Shown: positions 7,768-51,340 of the stretch, piece after piece
Layout: each line of letters begins with the position of its first letter
How positions within the stretch are numbered: the stretch's first letter is position 1
Source of the DNA: Methanocaldococcus sp. 16A
GTDB taxonomy: Archaea > AGJL01 > Methanococci > Methanococcales > Methanocaldococcaceae
Strand: one strand, 5' to 3'
NCBI GenBank assembly: GCA_049860595.1
Contig: CP187551.1
Length of the DNA stretch: 64,000 nt
Translations under genes and position numbers: made by a program
Notes under the pieces: model-generated
Told to the model about the DNA's origin: nothing
What the model saw: the letters and a program-made list of their open reading frames with translations, nothing else
Databases searched by the model: none

Positions 7768-7865
7768 AATAGGACTTTCGCAGTTTATATATTAAATTTT
7801 GACCTTTGACACCTCTAAGTGTCCTATATTTAATAGATAAAATTCATTCTTGCGAAAGTTCTATT
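7768..7865. mobile_element. MITE-like palindromic element, family A (left border of nif island; overlaps nifE 3' end)
   Basis: TIR AATAGGACTTTCGCA/TGCGAAAGTTCTATT, central GACAC-CTCTAA-GTGTC hairpin. Confidence 0.8.
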
Positions 7866-9184
7866 TTAAACTCAATCATCTTCCAAATTGGATGATATAT
7901 TGCTTTATAAATTTCCCTTGCAAGATTTAAGAAACCAATAAATCCTGTGAATGGATAGAAATCTTGAGGAAATGATAAGAATGGGATGCCAAATTTTACA
8001 GCCATGTATTTTTCTTTTGTTCCACCAACAAAGATATCTGGCTTTTTGTGCTTAAATATCAACTCTAAATCAATTTTTGAAGCATCATCAACTAAGATAG
8101 TGTTGTCATCTACATTAATATAGGCATCTAAGTAATCTTCTAAACTCCCAAATTGTGAGCCAACAGACACAATTTCCATATCTAAATCTTTAAAGGCAGA
8201 TGTTAGCATACCAATTTTTGAAGCTCCCATAAATATGCCAACTCTTTTCCCTTTCAACTTTTCCATATAAAATAATAACTCATCCTTTATTTTTTCAAAC
8301 TCTTCTTTTATAACCTCTCTTCCCCTATCTTCAATCCCAAAGAATTTTGCAATCTCCATTATTGACTTTTGGGTGTTGCTTAATCCAATAAATGAAACCT
8401 TTAATTGTGGGATACCATATTTTTCTTCCATATAATCAGCTATATATTTACCAGTTCTTCTACAATGGACAAGATTTAGCTTAGCATTTTTTGAATTTTT
8501 TATATCTTCTATTGTGCAATCTCCTGTAAATGTTGCTATAACCTCTATACCCAATTTATTTAGCAAATCTTTAATAACCTTTGTTTCATTACATATATCA
8601 TATTCTCCAATGATATTAACTGTTAATTTATCTTTAAATCTTTTTTTGTACTCTCCTTCTTTAATTAATCTAAATAATGCCTTCATTGCAATTTCATGAC
8701 CCTTTGATTGATGATATCCGCAAAATCCAGGACAAATTATTGGAATTATAGGAACTCTTAAAATTTCTTCAGCATCTTTACAAATGCTTTCTATGTTATC
8801 TCCAATCAATGCTGGAACGCAAGTTATATAAACAAAAACCGCATCTCCTCCCAATTCTTTATGAGCTTCAATTATTGTGTTGTATAATTTTTTTTCTCCC
8901 CCATAAACTACATCTTCAATCTGCATGTCTGTTGAAGCTATGACATATCTTTTTTTCCTAACATTCTGCCCATAAAAAGCACAACCTACTGGTGAGTGTA
9001 TAATATGAAGAGTGTTTTTTATTGGAGCTAAAATCCATCTTGCTCCATAGTATGGACAGCTTCTCTGATTAACAACACCAGGAGATGATTTTTTATCTGA
9101 TAATGGAATCCCATCCTTTTTTAGTGTAATTTTGTATGGAAGAACTTTTACATTATTAGCTTTACCATAATTTGTTTTATTCAT
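7844..9184 (-). CDS. nifE: NifE-like nitrogenase cofactor scaffold subunit (no adjacent nifN)
   Basis: RSCPYYG, HSPVGC, STDMQIEDVVYGGEKKL, ITCVP, QSKGH, LVHCRR; lacks the NifD His442 motif. Confidence 0.8.
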   Translation of the reverse strand: MNKTNYGKANNVKVLPYKITLKKDGIPLSDKKSSPGVVNQRSCPYYGARWILAPIKNTLHIIHSPVGCAFYGQNVRKKRYVIASTDMQIEDVVYGGEKKLYNTIIEAHKELGGDAVFVYITCVPALIGDNIESICKDAEEILRVPIIPIICPGFCGYHQSKGHEIAMKALFRLIKEGEYKKRFKDKLTVNIIGEYDICNETKVIKDLLNKLGIEVIATFTGDCTIEDIKNSKNAKLNLVHCRRTGKYIADYMEEKYGIPQLKVSFIGLSNTQKSIMEIAKFFGIEDRGREVIKEEFEKIKDELLFYMEKLKGKRVGIFMGASKIGMLTSAFKDLDMEIVSVGSQFGSLEDYLDAYINVDDNTILVDDASKIDLELIFKHKKPDIFVGGTKEKYMAVKFGIPFLSFPQDFYPFTGFIGFLNLAREIYKAIYHPIWKMIEFKIELSQE

Positions 9185-9816
9185 ACTATCTCCTTCAGCA
9201 CTTCAATTAATTTTTTGTAATCGCTGAAGTATTCACTTGGTGGATGCAAAATGTATAAAGAGCCATTTTTGAAAATCTTAACGCCTAAAATCTCTCCCTC
9301 ACTATTCTCAATAATTGGTTCATAGTCCCAATGTTCATAATCACAAATTAAAGAGAGGGTATCAACTATCCCCAACTTTCCATCTTCATCTTCAATATCA
9401 TATATATGGCTGTATTTTTCAATTAAATCAACATATTTTGAAAATTTTTCATCTTTAGCTTTAATATCCTCCCCATCTTTACATTTAACAACGAATTTAT
9501 CTCTTGTTAGATGTTTCATCAAATAATGCTCTAATATTCTTCCTTTTGATATATTTTTGAAATATGGGTCTATAACAACAACTTTTGGCTCATTCTCGCT
9601 TTCTAAAACTTCTTTAACTTTTATATCCTTCAATATTGTGAAAATACTTGATTGATTTGCTGAATATGAAGTTAAATCCTTAAAGAATAAAGGAAGGTAG
9701 ATTATTGATAAATCATACTTTGCTACGTCTATTTTGTTGAATGGGATGAATAAACAATCCTCTACATCGTAAGAATCGACATCATCAAGTTTTTTTCCTA
9801 AGAATAAAACTTTCAT
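9181..9816 (-). CDS. Hypothetical protein translationally coupled to nifE
   Basis: 211-aa ORF, GAGGT RBS, ATGA overlap with nifE start, own NrpR/BRE/TATA cassette. Confidence 0.75.
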   Translation of the reverse strand: MKVLFLGKKLDDVDSYDVEDCLFIPFNKIDVAKYDLSIIYLPLFFKDLTSYSANQSSIFTILKDIKVKEVLESENEPKVVVIDPYFKNISKGRILEHYLMKHLTRDKFVVKCKDGEDIKAKDEKFSKYVDLIEKYSHIYDIEDEDGKLGIVDTLSLICDYEHWDYEPIIENSEGEILGVKIFKNGSLYILHPPSEYFSDYKKLIEVLKEIV

Positions 9817-9864: not shown

Positions 9865-9900
9865 ATATATAAACTTTTCGGTATTAGGAAACTTATTTCC
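9865..9900 (-). promoter_or_regulatory. NrpR operator (GGAA-N6-TTCC, 9887-9900) + BRE + TATA
   Basis: Minus strand GGAAATAAGTTTCC-TAATA-CCGAAAAG-TTTATATA. Confidence 0.8.
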
Positions 9901-11106: not shown

Positions 11107-12501
11107 TTATTGCTGTTTCTGGTCCCATGGAACTTGTGTATCTAATATTGTATTAACTATATCATCAAAGAATCTTAAGCTTCCCATATATCCGACAATT
11201 GGCCATCTGAAGTATCCAACTCTATCATAGATAGGGAAACCCATTCTTACTAACCCAATTCCTAAATCTTCAGCTATCTTTGCCCCTCCTCTTGGATGTC
11301 CAATTAGTAAATCTACTCCAATTTTTTTAACTGATTTTTCAAAGTCCCATAAATCAGAGAACTGTACTTCAATATCAACGTCATACTCTTGAGCTATTGC
11401 CTCCATGTCTTTCTTGTATGTTGTAGATGGAGTTTGTGTATTAACAACAACTGGCTTCATTCCCATCTCACAAGCAAATCTTGAAACTGCTATAACAAAG
11501 TCGGGGTCTCCAAAGATTCCAACTTTCTTATCCATTGTGTAGTGGATTGTATCTACTATAGCATCTATCAACTTCCCTCTCTCATCCAACAACTTGTCAG
11601 GAATCTCCATTCCAGTAACTTTTGCTATATTTATGATGAAATCATCAGTATTTTTAATTCCAATTGGTAATCCATAGTAAGCAGGAATCTTGTATCTTCT
11701 CTGCAAGAATAAAGCCCCGCTACCACCAGCATGCCTACATAAAACAAACAATGCCTTAGCATTAATTATCTCTTCAAATTCTTCAACTTTAGTTCCACCT
11801 TTTGGATAGTAAGGAATTTCTTTTATTGGCTCTCTTAACGGCTGATATAATGTCTCACTAATATCAAATAATACTGAATAATCTTCCCCTTCTTTTAATC
11901 CAAACATATCTAATATCCTTTTAATCTCCAATATATCTCCAGGATTAACTCCAAATCCTGGAACTATCATTATTTTTTCAGCTTTTTCTTCATCTCTTTT
12001 CTTTCCAGATGTGAAGTATTGGAAAAATGCCTTTACAGCATTATCATAACCTTTAACATGGCTTGCCTGGTAAGATGGACAATGTACTGGAATTATTGGC
12101 AACTTAGCTTTTTCTTCTCCAAACTCTGCTGCAATCTTCTTTCTTGCAGCCCTAATAAATGCTTCAACATCATCTCCAATGGTCTCAGATGAACATGTTG
12201 TTACAACTGAAATTAAATCAGGGTCGTATCTTGCTACTAAGTTTCTAACCCCTTCAACTAAGTTTCTCATCCCTCCATAAACAGCGGCATCTTCGTGGAA
12301 TGAGGCTACAGCAATTGTTGCAGGCTCTCTAAAATGTCTGTTGAATGTATATCTTACATAAGTACAACATCCTTGAGAACCTTGTACAAATGGAATTCCT
12401 CTATGCACTCCCAAAGTAGCCCACATTGCACCAATTGGCTGACATGTTTTGTTAGGGTTTATAGTTCCTGCTCTCTCTTTTTCAACATAAGTTATTCCCA
12501 T
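11107..12501 (-). CDS. nifK: Nitrogenase component I beta subunit
   Basis: INPNKTCQPIGA, GSQGCC, TTCSSETIGDD, PSY, GFPIYDRVG; P-cluster ligands present. Confidence 0.95.
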   Translation of the reverse strand: MGITYVEKERAGTINPNKTCQPIGAMWATLGVHRGIPFVQGSQGCCTYVRYTFNRHFREPATIAVASFHEDAAVYGGMRNLVEGVRNLVARYDPDLISVVTTCSSETIGDDVEAFIRAARKKIAAEFGEEKAKLPIIPVHCPSYQASHVKGYDNAVKAFFQYFTSGKKRDEEKAEKIMIVPGFGVNPGDILEIKRILDMFGLKEGEDYSVLFDISETLYQPLREPIKEIPYYPKGGTKVEEFEEIINAKALFVLCRHAGGSGALFLQRRYKIPAYYGLPIGIKNTDDFIINIAKVTGMEIPDKLLDERGKLIDAIVDTIHYTMDKKVGIFGDPDFVIAVSRFACEMGMKPVVVNTQTPSTTYKKDMEAIAQEYDVDIEVQFSDLWDFEKSVKKIGVDLLIGHPRGGAKIAEDLGIGLVRMGFPIYDRVGYFRWPIVGYMGSLRFFDDIVNTILDTQVPWDQKQQ

Positions 12502-12545
12502 AAATATCACCTATAAAAATATAAATTTAGTTTAAAGAGATTAGA

Positions 12546-13988
12546 TTAGTTGTTTGTGTTTTCTTTCTTTTTAAATTCTTCAAATTTCTTCTCTCCTTCT
12601 TTTAAAATGTTCCAAATTGGATGATATACTGCTTTGTAAATATCTCTTGCGAAATTGACAAATCCTTTAAACGCAGCATAAGGTCCTTGTTCATAGCTGT
12701 GAGAGTTAATTGTTGGAATTCCAAACTTTCTGAATAAATATCTCTCCTTTAGTCCAGTAAGCATAAAGTCAGGTTTGTATTTTTCAACAGCTTCCTCTAA
12801 CTCAAGTTCATTTGGTGCATCTATAACTAAAGTTCCTTTAAGCCCAGCCTTTTTCAAGTTTTTATTTAACTTTTCATAATCATCTTCATGAGCAAATGTA
12901 CAGCATGCTACTACAACATCTATTCCTAACTCTTTCATTGCCCTAACCCAGTGCCATGTTCTTGGTCCCCCAACATAGACAAGGCAAGTTTTTCCTTCTA
13001 ATTTTGATTTATAAAAATCCAATTGTGGTTTAATTGCCTCCAATTCTTCTTTTATAACTTCCTCAACTCTTTCTTTAGGAATTCCTAAAGCTTCTGCAGT
13101 TTTTCTTAATGCTTCAGCAGTTTGCTCAATTCCAAATAGAGAGACCCAAATTCTTGGGACATTGAACCCATCTCTAATCATCTCAGCTATATAGTTAGCT
13201 GACCTCTGACAATGGACAACGTTCAATTTAACATCCGGCAATTTGAACAAATCATCTAAGGATGCATTTCCTGTAAAGACTGCAACAACTCTACATCCAA
13301 TTTTTTCAAATAATGGAACTATTACTTTTAAATCCCAGTCCATGTTGTAATCTCCAATTATTGCAATATCGTAAGGTGTTTTTTCCTCATCTTTCAAGCA
13401 TTTTTCAGGATATCTTTCCCTTGCCTTTTTTAACCATCTATAGAACTCTGTGTTGAGTATGTGATGCCCCTTTGATTGAGAAACCCCTGCATATCCTGGA
13501 CAGTTACAGGCAAAGACTGGTTTTCCTATTTTTTCCTCAACTTTTCTTGCCACAGCCTCTAAGTTATCTCCAATTAATCCAGTTGTACATGTTGCGTAAA
13601 TAAATATTCCCTTAGCTTCTGGAAATTCAGCAGCTGCCTCTAAACATGCTTTCTCTAATTTCTTCTCTCCACCATAAACAACATCTGCCTCTTGCATATC
13701 TGTTGTAAAACAATATCTCCTATGCAACTCACAATCAGATAGGTTTCTTCTTGTACCCCATGTATAGAATGCACATCCAACAGGGCCATGAACCATGTGA
13801 ATAATATCTTTAATTGGCCCACCAACGACCCCTCTTGCTCCAGCAAACGAACAACCTCTCTCTGTCATATCTCCTGGAACTGTTTTGATATTACATGCTG
13901 GAATTATCTCTTCTTCAGGGTCGTAGATGTACGTATGTTTCATCCTTTCTGGAATTGGCTTATCACAGTTAAGCAATACGAATGGCAT
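12546..13988 (-). CDS. nifD: Nitrogenase component I alpha subunit
   Basis: RGCSFAG, HGPVGC, ATCT, QSKGHH, VHCQRS (Cys275 equivalent), NSHSYEQGPY (His442 equivalent). Confidence 0.95.
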   Translation of the reverse strand: MPFVLLNCDKPIPERMKHTYIYDPEEEIIPACNIKTVPGDMTERGCSFAGARGVVGGPIKDIIHMVHGPVGCAFYTWGTRRNLSDCELHRRYCFTTDMQEADVVYGGEKKLEKACLEAAAEFPEAKGIFIYATCTTGLIGDNLEAVARKVEEKIGKPVFACNCPGYAGVSQSKGHHILNTEFYRWLKKARERYPEKCLKDEEKTPYDIAIIGDYNMDWDLKVIVPLFEKIGCRVVAVFTGNASLDDLFKLPDVKLNVVHCQRSANYIAEMIRDGFNVPRIWVSLFGIEQTAEALRKTAEALGIPKERVEEVIKEELEAIKPQLDFYKSKLEGKTCLVYVGGPRTWHWVRAMKELGIDVVVACCTFAHEDDYEKLNKNLKKAGLKGTLVIDAPNELELEEAVEKYKPDFMLTGLKERYLFRKFGIPTINSHSYEQGPYAAFKGFVNFARDIYKAVYHPIWNILKEGEKKFEEFKKKENTNN

Positions 13989-13997
13989 TTTATCACC

Positions 13998-14384
13998 TTA
14001 GTTACCTACTGCCTCTGCACCAAACTCTCCTGTTCTTATTCTTATTGCATCTTCAACTGGTAAAACAAAGATTTTCCCATCTCCTGGCTTTCCAGTTCTA
14101 TTTACTTTCATTATAATTCCAACAACCAATGGAACATCAGCATCGTCCACAACTATAGAAATCATCCTTTTTGGGATGTATTTCATTCTCATTCCCAACT
14201 TTTCCCCTTCTTCAATAATTTTCTCTTTATCTACAACATCTGGTAAATTTACATCAATATATCCTTTCTCTTTACCCCTTCCAAAGCATTTAATAACAGT
14301 CATCGCTGGAAAGCCAACAGCTTCTAATGCTTTCCCTGTTTTTGAGACCATATTTGGTCTAATTATAGCCAAAACCTCTTTCAT
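13998..14384 (-). CDS. nifI2: PII-family nitrogenase regulator NifI2
   Basis: MKEVLAIIRPN, GRGKEKG, GDGKIFV, IRIRTGE. Confidence 0.92.
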   Translation of the reverse strand: MKEVLAIIRPNMVSKTGKALEAVGFPAMTVIKCFGRGKEKGYIDVNLPDVVDKEKIIEEGEKLGMRMKYIPKRMISIVVDDADVPLVVGIIMKVNRTGKPGDGKIFVLPVEDAIRIRTGEFGAEAVGN

Positions 14385-14397
14385 TATTTCACCAAAA

Positions 14398-14715
14398 TTA
14401 TAACTCTTTAGCTCCAGTTCTGATTGTGTATGCTTCCTCTATTGGCTGAATGAAAATTTTTCCATCTCCAAAGTTTCCAGTGTAAGCGTTAGTTTTTATA
14501 ATTTCTACAACTTCATCAACTTCATCATCATTAACACCAATTAGTAGCATTGTTTTTGGCAATTCGTCATAGAATATCTCTCCAACTTTCAATCCTCCCT
14601 GCTTTCCCCTACCAACAACATCAATTTTTGTAAAAGATGGATAACCAGCTTTTTCTAAGGCATCTATTACATCATCAACTTTTTCTGGTCTGATAATTGC
14701 TTTTATTAACTTCAC
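14398..14715 (-). CDS. nifI1: PII-family nitrogenase regulator NifI1
   Basis: AIIRPEK, VVGRGKQGG, YDELPK, GDGKIF, TIRTG. Confidence 0.92.
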   Translation of the reverse strand: MKLIKAIIRPEKVDDVIDALEKAGYPSFTKIDVVGRGKQGGLKVGEIFYDELPKTMLLIGVNDDEVDEVVEIIKTNAYTGNFGDGKIFIQPIEEAYTIRTGAKEL

Positions 14716-14799: not shown

Positions 14800-15707
<908 letters not shown>

Positions 15708-15815: not shown

Positions 15816-16313
15816 TTAAGTCTTAGCTTTTTTCTTCTTTTTAACATGGAAATAATTTATTAATCCGCCAGCATCCAAAATTTCTCTCTCAATTCCTTTT
15901 GGAACTTCACATTTTAAAATGAGATTATCATTAACTATAATCTCCTCTCTATCTAAATCAATCTCAATTATATCTCCATCTTCAATCTCATCAGTATTAG
16001 CAATAATAGGGATTAATCCAATATTTATGGCATTTCTATAAAATATTCTTGCAAAACTTTTAGCTATAACTGCTTTAATTCCACAGTATTTTATTGCTAT
16101 TACTGCTTGCTCTCTACTTGAACCGCATCCAAAGTTTTCTCCTGCAGCTATTACATCTCCCTCTTTAACCTTCTTTGGAAAGTCTTTATCAATTCCATAC
16201 ATGCAATATCTCGCCAATTCATGTCCATCTGTTGTTTTTAGATATGGACCTGGAATAATTGCATCTGTATCGACATCATCTCCAAATTTATGAGCTTTTC
16301 CTCTAATATACAT
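15816..16313 (-). CDS. hacB: Homoaconitase/isopropylmalate isomerase small subunit (HacB/AksE-like), nif-linked
   Basis: KFGDDVDTDAIIPGPYLKT, NFGCGSSREQA, SFARIFYRNAIN; very close to methanogen HacB as recalled. Confidence 0.75.
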   Translation of the reverse strand: MYIRGKAHKFGDDVDTDAIIPGPYLKTTDGHELARYCMYGIDKDFPKKVKEGDVIAAGENFGCGSSREQAVIAIKYCGIKAVIAKSFARIFYRNAINIGLIPIIANTDEIEDGDIIEIDLDREEIIVNDNLILKCEVPKGIEREILDAGGLINYFHVKKKKKAKT

Positions 16314-16357
16314 AAATATCCCTCAATTCCTATTTTGTATATGAATTTATTTACATA

Positions 16358-16393
16358 TTATATAAAAGTTTCGGTATAAGGAAACTTATTTCC
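16358..16393 (-). promoter_or_regulatory. NrpR operator (16380-16393) + BRE + TATA for hacB-like gene; overlaps modC stop
   Basis: TTATATAAAAGTTTCGGTATAAGGAAACTTATTTCC, 32/36 identical to cassette at 9865. Confidence 0.8.
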
Positions 16394-17429
16394 GTATAAT
16401 GATAGAAGAAGCTATAGATATTTTTACTTCCATTCCTTTTTTGAGACCCATCCTATTTGCCTTAGACCTTATAACTTCACAAATTAAATTAATGCCATTA
16501 ACATCTAAAATAGCCCTAACAGTAGATAAGCTTAAAGGATAAATTTCAACGATTTTAGCATCAAAGAGGTTGTCTTTTTTGTAATGGTATCTACAGCCCC
16601 CATCTCCAACCAACATAATATCTTCAGGTCTTATTGCTAAAACTGCCTCTCCACACTCGTAAGGTTTATCAAGATAAATGTTTAAATCTCCTTCAAATAT
16701 ATAGTAGCCATCTTCTTTTTTAATTTTTCCTTTTAAGAAATTTTTGTATCCTACGAATTTTGCAACAAATTCATTTTTTGGATTGTTTATAATTTCATTA
16801 ACATCTCCAAACTGCTCTATCTTTCCATTCCTTATTATTGCCATTCTCTCTGCTAAGGCAATTGCTTCAATAAAATCATGAGTTACATGAACAAACGTTA
16901 AATTAGTATTTTTATGAATTTTTTTAAGTTCTAATATTAAATTTTCATGTGTTAGTCTATCTAAAGCATTTAAAGGTTCATCCAATAAAACAACCTCTGG
17001 TTCTACAACTAAAGCCCTTGCTAAAGCTACTCTCTGCTGTTCCCCTCCACTTAATGTGTCTGGTCTTCTATTTAGAAGATGTTCTATTCCCAGTAATTCA
17101 GCAATTTCTTTGACTTTCTCTTCTCTCAATTTTCTATCTTTTATACCAATGCCTATATTATCTTTAACACTTAAATGTGGAAATAAATATTTTCCATGGC
17201 ACATTACTATTTTTCTTTCATTTATTGGTTTGTTCGTTATATCTTTTCCATTCAAATAAATCTTTCCGCTATCTGGTTTTCTAAATCCGGCGATAATTTC
17301 CAATAGTGTAGTTTTTCCACTACCACTCAAACCTAAAACAACAAAATAATCATTTTTATATATTTCAAGTTCATCAATTTCAAGATTAAAGTATGCCAAT
17401 TTCTTCCTTAAATTTTCAATTTTGAGCAT
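16386..17429 (-). CDS. modC: Molybdate/tungstate ABC transporter ATPase with TOBE domain
   Basis: GLSGSGKTT, LSGGEQQRVALAR, LLDEP, VTHD. Confidence 0.85.
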   Translation of the reverse strand: MLKIENLRKKLAYFNLEIDELEIYKNDYFVVLGLSGSGKTTLLEIIAGFRKPDSGKIYLNGKDITNKPINERKIVMCHGKYLFPHLSVKDNIGIGIKDRKLREEKVKEIAELLGIEHLLNRRPDTLSGGEQQRVALARALVVEPEVVLLDEPLNALDRLTHENLILELKKIHKNTNLTFVHVTHDFIEAIALAERMAIIRNGKIEQFGDVNEIINNPKNEFVAKFVGYKNFLKGKIKKEDGYYIFEGDLNIYLDKPYECGEAVLAIRPEDIMLVGDGGCRYHYKKDNLFDAKIVEIYPLSLSTVRAILDVNGINLICEVIRSKANRMGLKKGMEVKISIASSIIIRK

Positions 17430-17431
17430 AA

Positions 17432-18139
17432 TCATCTCCCGAGGATGCAAAATCTCTCAACTCCTAATATTTTAGCCATTCCAGCAATTGTAGTTCCATA
17501 AAAAATAATTCTTTTATTGTATTTTTTAGCCAACTCCCAAATCTCTTCAAATGTTCCATTAGCTATCGTTGAACCAGTAGCTAAAACAACATCTGAATTT
17601 TTTATTAAATCCTCATTATACTTTCCATGAATGATTTTAGCTCCATATTTTATTTTTCCTACATTTTCTGGGTTTAAGTCACTAACTAAAACATTCTCTG
17701 CTCCAAAGTTATTAACAACCTCTTTAACAAATGCTGGCTGAAATCCAATAATACCAATTTTTTGTGGGTTTAATTCCTTTAGGTATTTAACAAGCTCTTT
17801 TGCACATTTTTCTGGCTCATCTCCAGTACAATGAACAGTTCTATCAACTAAGCCAAGAAATCTCATAACTGCATTTAAAGTTGCTATTATTTCAGCCCTA
17901 TTTCCTTTATCTAAAAGCTCTCTAATTGTTCCTTTAAACTCAACTGGTTTGTCTGTGAAGGCATCTCCATAACAACCTTTAAAATTAGCTCTCAACAAAA
18001 TCTCTTTACCACTCATTAAAGGGTAATCTTTGATTCTTGTTGTATCTAACTTAGTGTCTGATATTTTAATCTCAATTTCTTCATTTAGTAAGTTATTTTC
18101 TTCTGTAAGTTCTTTTAAAATTTCTTTAGCATCTACCAT
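17432..18139 (-). CDS. DUF364/Rossmann-like putative metal-chelation protein within mod operon
   Basis: ATLNAV, HC...PEKC, KIGIIGFQP, SDVVLATGSTIANGT. Confidence 0.7.
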   Translation of the reverse strand: MVDAKEILKELTEENNLLNEEIEIKISDTKLDTTRIKDYPLMSGKEILLRANFKGCYGDAFTDKPVEFKGTIRELLDKGNRAEIIATLNAVMRFLGLVDRTVHCTGDEPEKCAKELVKYLKELNPQKIGIIGFQPAFVKEVVNNFGAENVLVSDLNPENVGKIKYGAKIIHGKYNEDLIKNSDVVLATGSTIANGTFEEIWELAKKYNKRIIFYGTTIAGMAKILGVERFCILGR

Positions 18140-18929
18140 AGCTACCACCATTTAGATTTATTGCAAATTTTATCAATGAAATAACCATTATTGCAATTGC
18201 TATATGGATTACAGCAATAGCCAATGCTAATTCTATATTTCCAATTGAAACATTTAAAAATATTGCTATTGGTAATGTCTCTGTCTTCATCTTAGTAGCT
18301 CCAGCGAGCATTAATGTTGCTCCAAACTCTCCAATAGCCCTTGCCCATCCAAGAATTGCCCCAGCAACAATACCATTTTTTGCCATTGGAAGGGTTATTT
18401 TTAAAAAGCTCTCAAATCTACTCAATCCCAAACTTTGGGCAATATACTCATATTTGACATCAATTCCTTCAAACACAGCCCTTGTAGTTCTAATAATAAA
18501 TGGCGTTGCAATTATAAATTGAGCCAATATAATTCCATTTTGTGTAAATACAATCTCTACAATATTTTCTGAGATAAAATTGCCTATGGGTGTATTTCCT
18601 AACAGTAAGAGTAATCCAAAACCTAAAACCAATGGAGGAAGTAATATTGGCAAGTTTATTAAGCTGTCTATAATTTCCTTACCCTTAAAATTATTTCTTG
18701 CTAAGGCATATCCAGAAGGAATCCCAATTAATAGAGCAAGTAAAGTAGCTATAATTGAACATTTGACACTTAAAATTACAGCAAATTTAACCTCTTCTGA
18801 TAACAATGCATCAAATAAGTTTTCTATTGATATTTTGCTAAATATACAGACTATTATACAAACAAGTATCCCAAGGAATAAAATTAAGGGAATACCCATA
18901 AAAAATTTTAAATTATTATTTTTAATCAT
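18126..18929 (-). CDS. modB: Molybdate ABC transporter permease
   Basis: LPILLPPLVLGFGLL, ITLPMA, WARAIGEFGAT. Confidence 0.88.
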   Translation of the reverse strand: MIKNNNLKFFMGIPLILFLGILVCIIVCIFSKISIENLFDALLSEEVKFAVILSVKCSIIATLLALLIGIPSGYALARNNFKGKEIIDSLINLPILLPPLVLGFGLLLLLGNTPIGNFISENIVEIVFTQNGIILAQFIIATPFIIRTTRAVFEGIDVKYEYIAQSLGLSRFESFLKITLPMAKNGIVAGAILGWARAIGEFGATLMLAGATKMKTETLPIAIFLNVSIGNIELALAIAVIHIAIAIMVISLIKFAINLNGGSYGRC

Positions 18930-18944
18930 AATTATCACTTGATT

Positions 18945-19724
18945 TTATTGCTCAATAACTTCGAAACCATGCTTCTTAAATATCTCTTTTCCTTCTGTTA
19001 AAACAAAGTTGTAGAATTTCTCAGCAGTTTCTTTATTTTTTGTAGTTTTTAGTATTGCAATAGGAACTGTCTTTATAACATTGTATTTTGGATTTATTGG
19101 GATAATATCAACCTTATCTTTGTTTTCTATGGCATCTGCCCTCCACACAACAGCAACATCTGCCTGACCTTCTATAACATACAATAATACCTGTTTAACT
19201 GTAGCTCCTCTAACAACTACATTTTTATTTATTTTTTCTGTTATTCCTGGATTGTCTTTTTCTGCCTTTGCAAGAATCTTTTTAAATGTCCTACCAATTG
19301 CTATGTTCTCATCACCTAACGCTACTTTAACTCCTGGTTTTCCTAAGTCTTCAAGACATGTTATATTTTTTGGATTTCCTTTCTGAACTACAATAACTGG
19401 GATATGTTTGGTGAAGTTTGTGTATTTTAAGATGTATCCTCTCTTTTCAAGTTCTCCAACATAGAAATAAGCCCCTGGCATAAAAATGTCTCCATCATTT
19501 GATGCTAAAATTTTTGAATATAGGTAGCCGCTTCCAGCGTAATCATATTCAACTTTTATCCCATATTTTTCTTCAAAGAGCTTTCCTATCTCATCCATCG
19601 GTTTTTGCATTCCAGCACCAACATAAGCATGTATAACTTCTTCTTTTGATTCTTTATTTGTGCATCCAGAAGCTAAGACTATTGCTACAATTAATAATCC
19701 AAATATTGTTATTTTTCTGTTCAT
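18945..19724 (-). CDS. modA: Molybdate-binding lipoprotein
   Basis: Lipobox LASGC, YAGSG, DIFMPG, AIG, TVKQV. Confidence 0.85.
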   Translation of the reverse strand: MNRKITIFGLLIVAIVLASGCTNKESKEEVIHAYVGAGMQKPMDEIGKLFEEKYGIKVEYDYAGSGYLYSKILASNDGDIFMPGAYFYVGELEKRGYILKYTNFTKHIPVIVVQKGNPKNITCLEDLGKPGVKVALGDENIAIGRTFKKILAKAEKDNPGITEKINKNVVVRGATVKQVLLYVIEGQADVAVVWRADAIENKDKVDIIPINPKYNVIKTVPIAILKTTKNKETAEKFYNFVLTEGKEIFKKHGFEVIEQ

Positions 19725-19836: not shown

Positions 19837-19872
19837 ATATATAAACTTTTCGGTATTAGGAAACTTATTTCC
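19837..19872 (-). promoter_or_regulatory. NrpR operator (19859-19872) + BRE + TATA for mod operon
   Basis: Exactly identical to 9865-9900. Confidence 0.82.
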
Positions 19873-19910: not shown

Positions 19911-19946
19911 ATATATAAACCTTTCGGCATAAGGAAGTATAATTCC
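19911..19946. promoter_or_regulatory. NrpR operator (19933-19946) + BRE/TATA, abutting RBS of MBL gene
   Basis: ATATATAAACCTTTCGGCATAAGGAAGTATAATTCC. Confidence 0.75.
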
Positions 19947-19959
19947 GTGAGGTGATATT

Positions 19960-20556
19960 ATGATAAAACTTCTTTATAAGGGAGAACTTATAAGAGAAAA
20001 TGATGTAGTAAAGAAAGCGTCATCTTCAGTAACTTTAATACAAACAAAAAATCATAATATTATTGTAGATACTTCAACAAAAGATAAAAGGGAGTTAATT
20101 ATTGATGAATTAAAAAAATTAAACTTAGACCCAAAAGATATTGATGTAGTTATAAATACTCATAGACATCATGACCATATAGAAAATAATGATTTATTTG
20201 AAAATGCAAAGATTTATGCTTCTGCACAGGAATGTATTGTTGAATGTAAGGGATGTAAATTGTATTCAAATGTTGAAGATGTTGAGGAATTTATACCAAT
20301 TGAAAAATTTTATGATGATGAAATAACTATAATAAAAACTCCTGGGCACACTTATGGTAGTATATCTGTGGTTTATGAAGATTACGTTATTGTAGGAGAT
20401 GCAGCTCCTTTAAAGAATAATATTTTGGATGATATTCCTCCATCAATTATGGTAGATTATAGAGCAGCAAAAGGTAGCTTAAGAAGGATAAAATTATTAA
20501 AAAAGAATGTTATAACTGGACATGATGGTATTGTTTATAAAGAGGAGTTTCTTTAA
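19960..20556 (+). CDS. Metallo-beta-lactamase-fold hydrolase with extra Cys cluster
   Basis: THRHHDH, TPGHT, VGDA, TGHD; CxxxCxxC insert. Confidence 0.85.
   Translation: MIKLLYKGELIRENDVVKKASSSVTLIQTKNHNIIVDTSTKDKRELIIDELKKLNLDPKDIDVVINTHRHHDHIENNDLFENAKIYASAQECIVECKGCKLYSNVEDVEEFIPIEKFYDDEITIIKTPGHTYGSISVVYEDYVIVGDAAPLKNNILDDIPPSIMVDYRAAKGSLRRIKLLKKNVITGHDGIVYKEEFL

Positions 20557-48592: not shown

Positions 48593-51340
<2,748 letters not shown>

Follow-up and report, generated by a model that had tools for sequence, protein, structure and literature searches.

The locus described here raises the question of why the nitrogen fixation (nif) region of a methanogen should contain a second gene for the small subunit of homoaconitase. 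The gene, referred to as hacB-K for the lysine in its substrate loop, is located in a stretch of 64,000 nucleotides of contig CP187551.1 from Methanocaldococcus sp. 16A (assembly GCA_049860595.1). This whole stretch is called the window, and positions are counted from its first letter. hacB-K is on the minus strand, flanked on one side by a modA-modB-DUF364-modC cluster and on the other by nifH-nifI1-nifI2-nifD-nifK. From its sequence, the product (HacB-K) is probably an alternative small (specificity) subunit of the methanogen homoaconitase, a nif-linked and likely nitrogen-regulated isoform. A more tentative reading, to which we give slightly less than an even chance, is that this nitrogen-regulated subunit shares the large subunit HacA with its housekeeping paralogue, sparing homocitrate for the iron-molybdenum cofactor (FeMoco) of nitrogenase.

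The hacB-K gene, its housekeeping counterpart and its putative promoter

HacB-K scores 292.9 bits with the NCBIfam model for methanogen HacB (HacB_Meth, NF040604), above the curated cut-off of 230, and the housekeeping HacB scores 295.6 bits. With the LeuD equivalog model (TIGR02084) it reaches 177.4 bits, below the cut-off of 245.85. A PF00694 domain (76.6 bits) and the GCGSSRE motif are present in the product. The closest solved structure is 2pkp_A, 'Homoaconitase small subunit' (E 4e-86), and the M. jannaschii HacB of this entry (PDB 2pkp; NF040604) is like HacB-K in fold family, length and GCGSSRE motif. The YLRT loop of 2pkp_A is aligned with the YLKT loop of HacB-K. The Arg26 that characterizes the HacB family is therefore a lysine in HacB-K, encoded by AAA at 16236-16238. 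In addition, Gly30 and His31 are found in the loop region of HacB-K from the source genome (designated G000, the other genomes being numbered likewise). HacB-K differs from M. jannaschii HacB in these three residues and also in being a second copy, located in a nif/mod island and having an NrpR-type operator.

Arg26 of the YLRT loop is reportedly a specificity determinant in HacB (Jeyakanthan et al., Biochemistry, 2010), and this agrees with a preliminary description of the locus. With Arg26 of the M. jannaschii subunit replaced by lysine (R26K), a relatively efficient isopropylmalate isomerase was reportedly obtained in the same work. That engineered variant has the same substitution as HacB-K, at the same position of an almost identical protein. 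It is a laboratory mutant of a housekeeping gene, whereas the change in HacB-K is natural, apparently selected, nif-linked and predicted to be regulated.

Three small subunits are encoded in G000 (1.62 Mb; positions on its contig are given as C1). They are HacB-K (YLKT), the housekeeping HacB-R (YLRT, at C1:335,805-336,293), which has 84% identity to HacB-K, and a LeuD-type subunit (YLVY). A separate LeuD-type subunit is kept in every genome examined. There are two large subunits, at C1:588,9xx and C1:1,011,7xx. One of them is HacA, with 835.5 bits against the HacA_Meth cut-off of 550, and the second is under this cut-off (538 bits) and is of the LeuC type. No large subunit gene is found near hacB-K (C1:1,263,8xx), both genome copies being far from the window. 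No nifV is found in G000, where the best score with the NifV model (TIGR02660), genome-wide, is 399.9 bits against a cut-off of 462.9. The HMGL domain is present in three synthases of the isopropylmalate, citramalate or homocitrate synthase type and in one pyruvate-carboxylase-like protein. Three synthase paralogues is the number expected for LeuA, CimA and AksA. An NrpR-type gene, with two PF01995 domains in one frame of 542 amino acids (aa), is located at C1:390,476-391,828.

The comparison covers 40 genomes of the order Methanococcales, and a phylum-wide scope yields the same 40. Two HacB genes are present in six of them (G000, G003, G007, G016, G038 and G039), always one with YLRT and one with YLKT (to be referred to as the R and K copies). 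All six housekeeping copies have YLRT, and all six extra copies have Lys26. The K copy is an intact open reading frame (ORF) in each of these genomes and in two metagenome contigs. The differences likely to matter for function are concentrated in the substrate loop, where R26K is common to all the K copies, and P30G and Y31H are found in those of G000, G007, G038 and G039.

The two copies within a genome have identical tracts, of 194 nucleotides (nt) in G000, 320 in G003, 204 in G007, 291 in G016, 330 in G038 and 128 in G039. The flanks of the G000 tract are only about 75-80% identical, with many synonymous differences among them. The combination of a 100% identical tract with diverged flanks, synonymous sites included, indicates gene conversion between the two hacB loci. 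Codon 26 is nevertheless different in the two copies of all six genomes. In the G016 pair the sole difference over the first 365 nt is at nt 74, the middle base of codon 26 (AAA vs AGA). The G003 pair is 96% identical, and its identical tract begins right behind codon 26. As conversion homogenizes the copies yet never removes the difference at this codon, selection has evidently preserved the K/R difference or made it anew, irrespective of the age of the K copies.

The K copies of two genera have common ends, MYIRGKAH...YLKT(T/M)DGHEL at the N terminus and INY(F/Y)H at the C terminus. In a tree of the full-length sequences the K copies group inside their own genera. In a tree of the termini, a grouping of five K copies exceeds the free tree by 1.21 log-likelihood units (approximately unbiased test, p-AU 0.54; the group was named post hoc). 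The termini are compatible with a single K lineage, without proving one, and the K copies may represent an old lineage or parallel duplications. Binding of HacB-K to the single HacA is expected because HacB-K is nearly identical to HacB-R apart from the termini.

The promoter region of hacB-K has an NrpR-type operator, followed by an element resembling a transcription factor B recognition element (BRE) and TATA box (Table 1). The operator pattern GGAA-N6-TTCC occurs at seven sites in the window, compared to 1.35 expected, and seven is reached by 0 of 100 shuffles. Genome-wide there are 62 sites, and 15 for the reversed control. A 36-nt operator-BRE-TATA cassette occurs three times in the island (9865-9900, 16358-16393 and 19837-19872). 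An exact copy of the operator 14-mer of hacB-K is located ahead of the 211-aa/nifE genes and another ahead of modA, followed in each case by 5 nt, CCGAAA and a TTTATATA box. The cassettes before the 211-aa gene and modA are identical, and the hacB-K cassette matches at about 32 of the 36 positions (counted by hand). The operator is upstream of the BRE/TATA in these three cassettes, in the opposite order to that at nifH.

An operator is located within 200 nt upstream of three of the six K copies (G000, G007 and G016, at the same position in all three), of none of the six R copies and of none of the 31 single-copy HacBs. The K copy of G003 abuts modC, and modA of that operon has an operator. In metagenome contig L188, hacB-K is located behind modC with little or no gap, and the contig ends inside modA, the promoter of which is beyond view. 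Since there is little or no gap after modC, hacB-K of G003 and L188 would ride on the mod transcript. Having the NrpR-operator promoter, or being part of the NrpR-controlled mod operon, hacB-K is predicted to be expressed under a shortage of fixed nitrogen.

The preliminary description had reported a HacB-like gene with a Y24-L-K26-T27 loop and its own NrpR cassette, directly upstream of nifH, with no large subunit nearby and no nifV in the island. The NF040604 score and the YLKT translation agree with the first of these statements, and the operator at 16380-16393 with its BRE/TATA, in a gene placed between modC and nifH, with the second. The large subunit genes are indeed distant, and the absence of a protein reaching the NifV cut-off extends from the island to the whole genome. 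A separate housekeeping hacB with YLRT, which the description had left to be confirmed, is present as HacB-R.

Lysine 26 and nitrogenase in the Methanococcales

NifD is found in 19 of the 40 genomes, and G008 has a NifE-like match alone. A Lys26 HacB is present in 16 of the 18 genomes that have both NifD and HacB, and in none of the 17 clearly NifD-free genomes, all of which have YLRT only. The 18 genomes comprise six with both R and K copies, ten with a single HacB having Lys26, and two without Lys26. At the DNA level, a degenerate pattern of the K loop matches in exactly 17 genomes, the Lys26 set including G030, with zero control matches. G030 has Lys26 and nifD was not found there, but this genome is only 64% complete.

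The phylogeny of a single 903-aa marker protein served as a proxy for the species tree. Both traits are scattered over this tree. The nearest relatives of G000 are nif-free, and G031 (Lys26, with nif) is nested among G024, G027 and G028 (Arg26, without nif). Of six independent contrasts, about 5.3 join the K state to nif and 0 have the opposite direction (median sign-test p 0.0625). The single-copy genera alone give 3 contrasts (p 0.25). Five genomes were left out of this test: G029 and G035 (no HacB found), G008 (ambiguous nif status), G030 (the marker is a 265-aa fragment) and G034 (no marker and no HacB found; 54% complete). Lys26 thus tracks nitrogenase in a manner that is suggestive, short of conclusive.

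The association is also physical. The island is about 13-15 kb long, and the genes that flank it are 15.5 kb apart in the window, compared to 1.6 kb in G001 and 0.9 kb in G005, both nif-free. hacB-K is located behind modC in G000, G003, G007 and G016 and in two metagenome contigs, and it is linked to nif/mod in all four two-copy genomes of its genus as well as in these contigs. In G016 and in contig L246 it is separated from nifH. G008 (86% complete) has the mod operon and the 211-aa/nifE pair, and neither nifD nor a K copy was seen in it.

Two further observations concern the proteins used in this comparison. The marker (window positions 48593-51304, minus strand) is matched over residues 1-677 only in the other taxonomic family of the comparison, where its frames are 728-747 aa long in genera g3-g5 and about 790-815 in g2. 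The frames of G006, G008 and G010 are 1299-1345 aa long, and an insertion, for example of an intein, may account for this length. HacB of the nif-free g2 genomes G021-G023 (loci L056-L058) has an Asn/Lys/Glu-rich, low-complexity insertion of 30-50 residues in its C-terminal half, for a total of 192-214 aa.

Neighboring genes of the island

The positions of hacB-K, its sequence elements and its neighbors are given in Table 1. Behind the NifE-like gene no nifN-like ORF is present, the following ORF being on the opposite strand. The pair formed by the 211-aa ORF and the NifE-like gene is kept in G003, G004, G007, G008, G016 and G039. The DUF364 gene ('putative heavy-metal chelation') is found between modB and modC in every island examined, and in G016, where the island is split, it is present at both halves.

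Table 1. Features of the hacB-K locus and the nif/mod island (window positions).
Feature	Position	Strand	Remarks
hacB-K	15816-16313	-	intact 165-aa ORF; homoaconitase-type small subunit, paralogue of housekeeping HacB
Recognition loop Y24-L25-K26-T27	16233-16244	-	from translation and DNA
Gene-conversion tract	15976-16169	-	194 nt (coding nt 145-338), 100% identity to housekeeping hacB 930 kb away
NrpR-type operator GGAAACTTATTTCC	16380-16393		GGAA-N6-TTCC; overlaps modC stop codon; 67-80 nt upstream of hacB-K ATG
BRE/TATA-like element CCGAAAC TTTTATATAA	16358-16379	-	5 nt downstream of operator; putative promoter element
NrpR-type operator of nifH GGAAACCTATTTCC	15694-15707		downstream of TATA-like run
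Two operators	19859-19872, 19933-19946		between modA and divergent MBL gene
Operator cassette	9865-9900		before 211-aa ORF, far end of island
nifH	14800-15666	-	94-99% identical to nifH-position genes of related loci; named by position and similarity
nifI1	14398-14715	-	named by order and similarity
nifI2	13998-14384	-	named by order and similarity
nifD	12546-13988	-	named by order and similarity
nifK	11107-12510	-	named by order and similarity
211-aa ORF	9181-9816	-	no NCBIfam match
NifE-like gene	7844-9184	-	TIGR01283 402 bits, under cut-off of 505
modC-type ATPase	16386-17450	-	under every equivalog cut-off; directly upstream of hacB-K
DUF364 gene	17432-18151	-	PF04016
modB	18126-18938	-	TIGR02141 203 bits vs 182.6
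modA	18945-19724	-	TIGR01256 98.4 bits vs 62.5
MBL-fold hydrolase, island copy	19960-20556	+	housekeeping paralogue elsewhere in genome

A hydrolase of the metallo-β-lactamase (MBL) fold is encoded beyond modA, with an operator 14 nt before its ATG. Its best matches are weak and are to lactonases and glyoxalase II. This island copy and a housekeeping paralogue (61-74% identity) are both present in the nif-containing G000, G003, G007, G016 and G039, and in G039 the island-type copy is the divergent neighbor of hacB-K. It is a speculation that this hydrolase acts on homocitrate lactone.

Proposed homocitrate sparing and competing explanations

In the mechanism that we propose, hacB-K would be transcribed under nitrogen shortage, from the NrpR-operator promoter or together with the NrpR-controlled mod operon. 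HacB-K would bind the single HacA, competing with HacB-R for it, and the resulting enzyme would have a relaxed or weakened handling of tricarboxylate substrates. AksA would make (R)-homocitrate and be its only source in a genome without nifV. With the weaker enzyme, coenzyme B synthesis would draw less tightly on the (R)-homocitrate pool, and the spared homocitrate, with imported molybdate, would be available to FeMoco assembly. Genera with a single HacB would reach the same state constitutively, having Lys26 in their only copy. The link to homocitrate is drawn because nifV is absent, the gene is linked to mod and nif, and the K state correlates with nif. The mechanism is plausible yet unproven, and we infer its induction, HacA pairing, kinetic effect and homocitrate link from sequence comparisons.

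Parts of this arrangement are known from other systems. In this family the recognition loop of the small subunit sets the substrate preference, according to a study on the Arabidopsis isopropylmalate isomerase (PMC7308503). The same study describes one large subunit with three alternative small subunits, which have loop-set preferences and are differentially expressed. The split there is between leucine synthesis and glucosinolate chain elongation and is tissue-specific. For HacB-K, the two sides would be the synthesis of coenzyme B and a state of nitrogen limitation, with isoforms kept alike by gene conversion. The gene for bacterial NifV is likewise linked to nif and serves to provide the organic acid of FeMoco, the role proposed for hacB-K. 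NifV makes homocitrate, whereas hacB-K would act on its consumption.

Two genomes speak for homocitrate sparing in detail. G008, which is without nifD, is also without a K copy, and the sole HacB of G004 is altered in the loop (YLRA). This HacB (locus L049) has the loop YLRARD, with Thr27 changed and not Arg26, and is unique among the genomes examined. The nif locus of G004 has a minimal layout, without hacB-K.

Several observations weigh against it. G004 (YLRA) and G020 (YLRT) have nif and no Lys26 HacB, and nifD and nifE of G020, which has only YLRT, look intact. A Lys26 HacB is therefore not required in every diazotroph. The association of Lys26 with nif rests on few independent events and on a single-protein species proxy, and in genus g1, where the island itself contains the K copy, the co-occurrence is partly automatic. 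In a sister genus, g5, the K copies (G038 and G039) have their own BRE/TATA, have no operator and do not adjoin nif. M. infernus is reported to grow on N2 at about 92 °C (PMC13554218); its nif genes form a 'minimal nif operon', and its FeMoco contains homocitrate. Finally, lysine is normal at the residue-26 position in LeuD proteins, and HacB-like loci of Methanosarcinales and Methanotrichales carry YLRT, including that of a Methanosarcina, among the 80 best contig loci. The other orders were sampled only through these 80 loci, where the nif state is untyped, and YLKT is found in one of the 80, from a Methanothermococcus metagenome-assembled genome.

With regard to homocitrate synthesis in these orders, the Methanosarcinales genomes G040, G041 and G043 (loci L157, L181 and L138) have a fourth HMGL-type synthase, which scores 215-237 bits with the NifV model, under its cut-off. 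G000 and G042 have three each. If the fourth enzyme is a nif-related homocitrate synthase, it could explain why Arg26 suffices in those Methanosarcinales.

The preliminary description had called for nif linkage and Lys26 conservation to be tested, and had interpreted the gene as a possible homocitrate switch. The linkage stands for the extra copies of four genomes, and Lys26 for all six extra copies. It does not extend to the unlinked copies of G038 and G039, nor Lys26 to G004 and G020. The switch interpretation gains from the third small subunit, the operator promoter and the nif/mod linkage, and loses as a general rule for diazotrophs with G004 and G020. Its remark that no description of such a mechanism was known agrees with the literature searched, where no nif-linked or nitrogen-regulated HacB was found. 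The main text of the transcriptome study of diazotrophic M. thermolithotrophicus (PMC9765008) has no mention of homoaconitase or isopropylmalate.

The first competing explanation, which we consider unlikely, is that Lys26 makes the HacA-bound subunit a broad hydro-lyase, acting as homoaconitase and as isopropylmalate/citramalate isomerase. The benefit under nitrogen limitation would then be in the synthesis of 2-oxoacids or branched-chain amino acids and not in homocitrate supply. A YLKT loop is found in bona fide LeuD proteins that pass curated cut-offs. Metagenomic proteins with ARYLKTTDK pass NF002458 (249-250 bits vs 167) and TIGR00171, and short ones with YLKT(S/V)D pass TIGR02084 (251-256 bits vs 245.85). 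Because many metagenomic proteins with YLKT pass LeuD cut-offs, Lys26 can be taken as the isopropylmalate-isomerase state, in line with the activity reported for the engineered R26K variant. Moreover, single-copy Lys26 HacBs evidently still support coenzyme B synthesis, so that their specificity would be broadened and not lost. However, HacB-K itself is under the LeuD equivalog cut-off, and with a separate LeuD-type subunit in every genome, and a LeuC type in G000, there is no apparent gap in leucine synthesis. A broad isomerase also gives no reason for the K state to track nifD, or for the place of the gene between modC and nifH.

A second explanation is that hacB-K is a spare or xenologous duplicate that travels with the nif/mod island, with Lys26 as a tolerated lineage marker that has no nif-specific role. 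The island is an indel relative to the nif-free genomes, as seen from the spacing of its flanks (15.5 kb vs 1.6 and 0.9 kb), and it holds a second gene copy with a housekeeping paralogue, that of the MBL hydrolase. Lysine and arginine are one transition apart (AAA/AGA), and G004 and G020 show nif without Lys26. Four observations are difficult to reconcile with a passenger, and we regard it as quite improbable. Conversion has not erased the K/R difference in any of six genomes, and in G016 the lone base difference within 365 nt falls on the middle base of codon 26, for which the probability by chance is about 1 in 1,000. The ORF is intact in six genomes and two metagenome contigs. A dedicated operator promoter is kept in three genomes. 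Furthermore, the K/R state of unlinked housekeeping genes also follows nif in the single-copy genera (G031 vs G024, G027 and G028).

2-Oxoglutarate is both the effector of NrpR and the substrate of AksA. It is conceivable, though very improbable, that HacA is titrated by the nitrogen-induced Lys26 subunit, giving a less efficient enzyme. Coenzyme B synthesis would then take up less 2-oxoglutarate and more would be saved for ammonia assimilation, nitrogenase cofactor supply not being the target. The regulation and the shared HacA would fit this brake as they fit homocitrate sparing, but the cofactor flux is small beside glutamate synthesis, NrpR-regulated ammonia assimilation is also found in nif-free relatives, where Lys26 is present in 0 of 17, and species with a single Lys26 HacB would bear the brake constitutively.

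Homocitrate sparing by HacB-K can be extended to the order as a whole, with residue 26 of HacB as an adaptive homocitrate-partitioning switch for archaeal diazotrophs without nifV. We consider this extension possible but rather doubtful. In Methanococcales, nitrogen fixation would favor a homoaconitase with Lys26, by which sufficient (R)-homocitrate is left to FeMoco. Genera of mesophiles and thermophiles would have fixed Lys26 in their only HacB. Hyperthermophilic genera would keep the efficient Arg26 enzyme for coenzyme B and add a Lys26 isoform, which in the source genus would be under NrpR control and share a transcript or a location with molybdate import. Once nif is lost, the constraint would be lifted, and lysine would revert to arginine.

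How diazotrophic methanogens without nifV source homocitrate for FeMoco, when it is also the first intermediate of coenzyme B synthesis, is not addressed in the literature found. The locus offers a testable handle on this question, as a subunit of known structure has here a single natural change (R26K), held against gene conversion and travelling with nitrogenase. Should the link be false, the locus would still be a clean example of concerted evolution in which a single difference is under selection. If the proposed role is true, hacB-K would be a prokaryotic case of regulated small-subunit swapping in the aconitase family, and a metabolic-partitioning component for the minimal archaeal nif systems that are now being moved into plants and other hosts.

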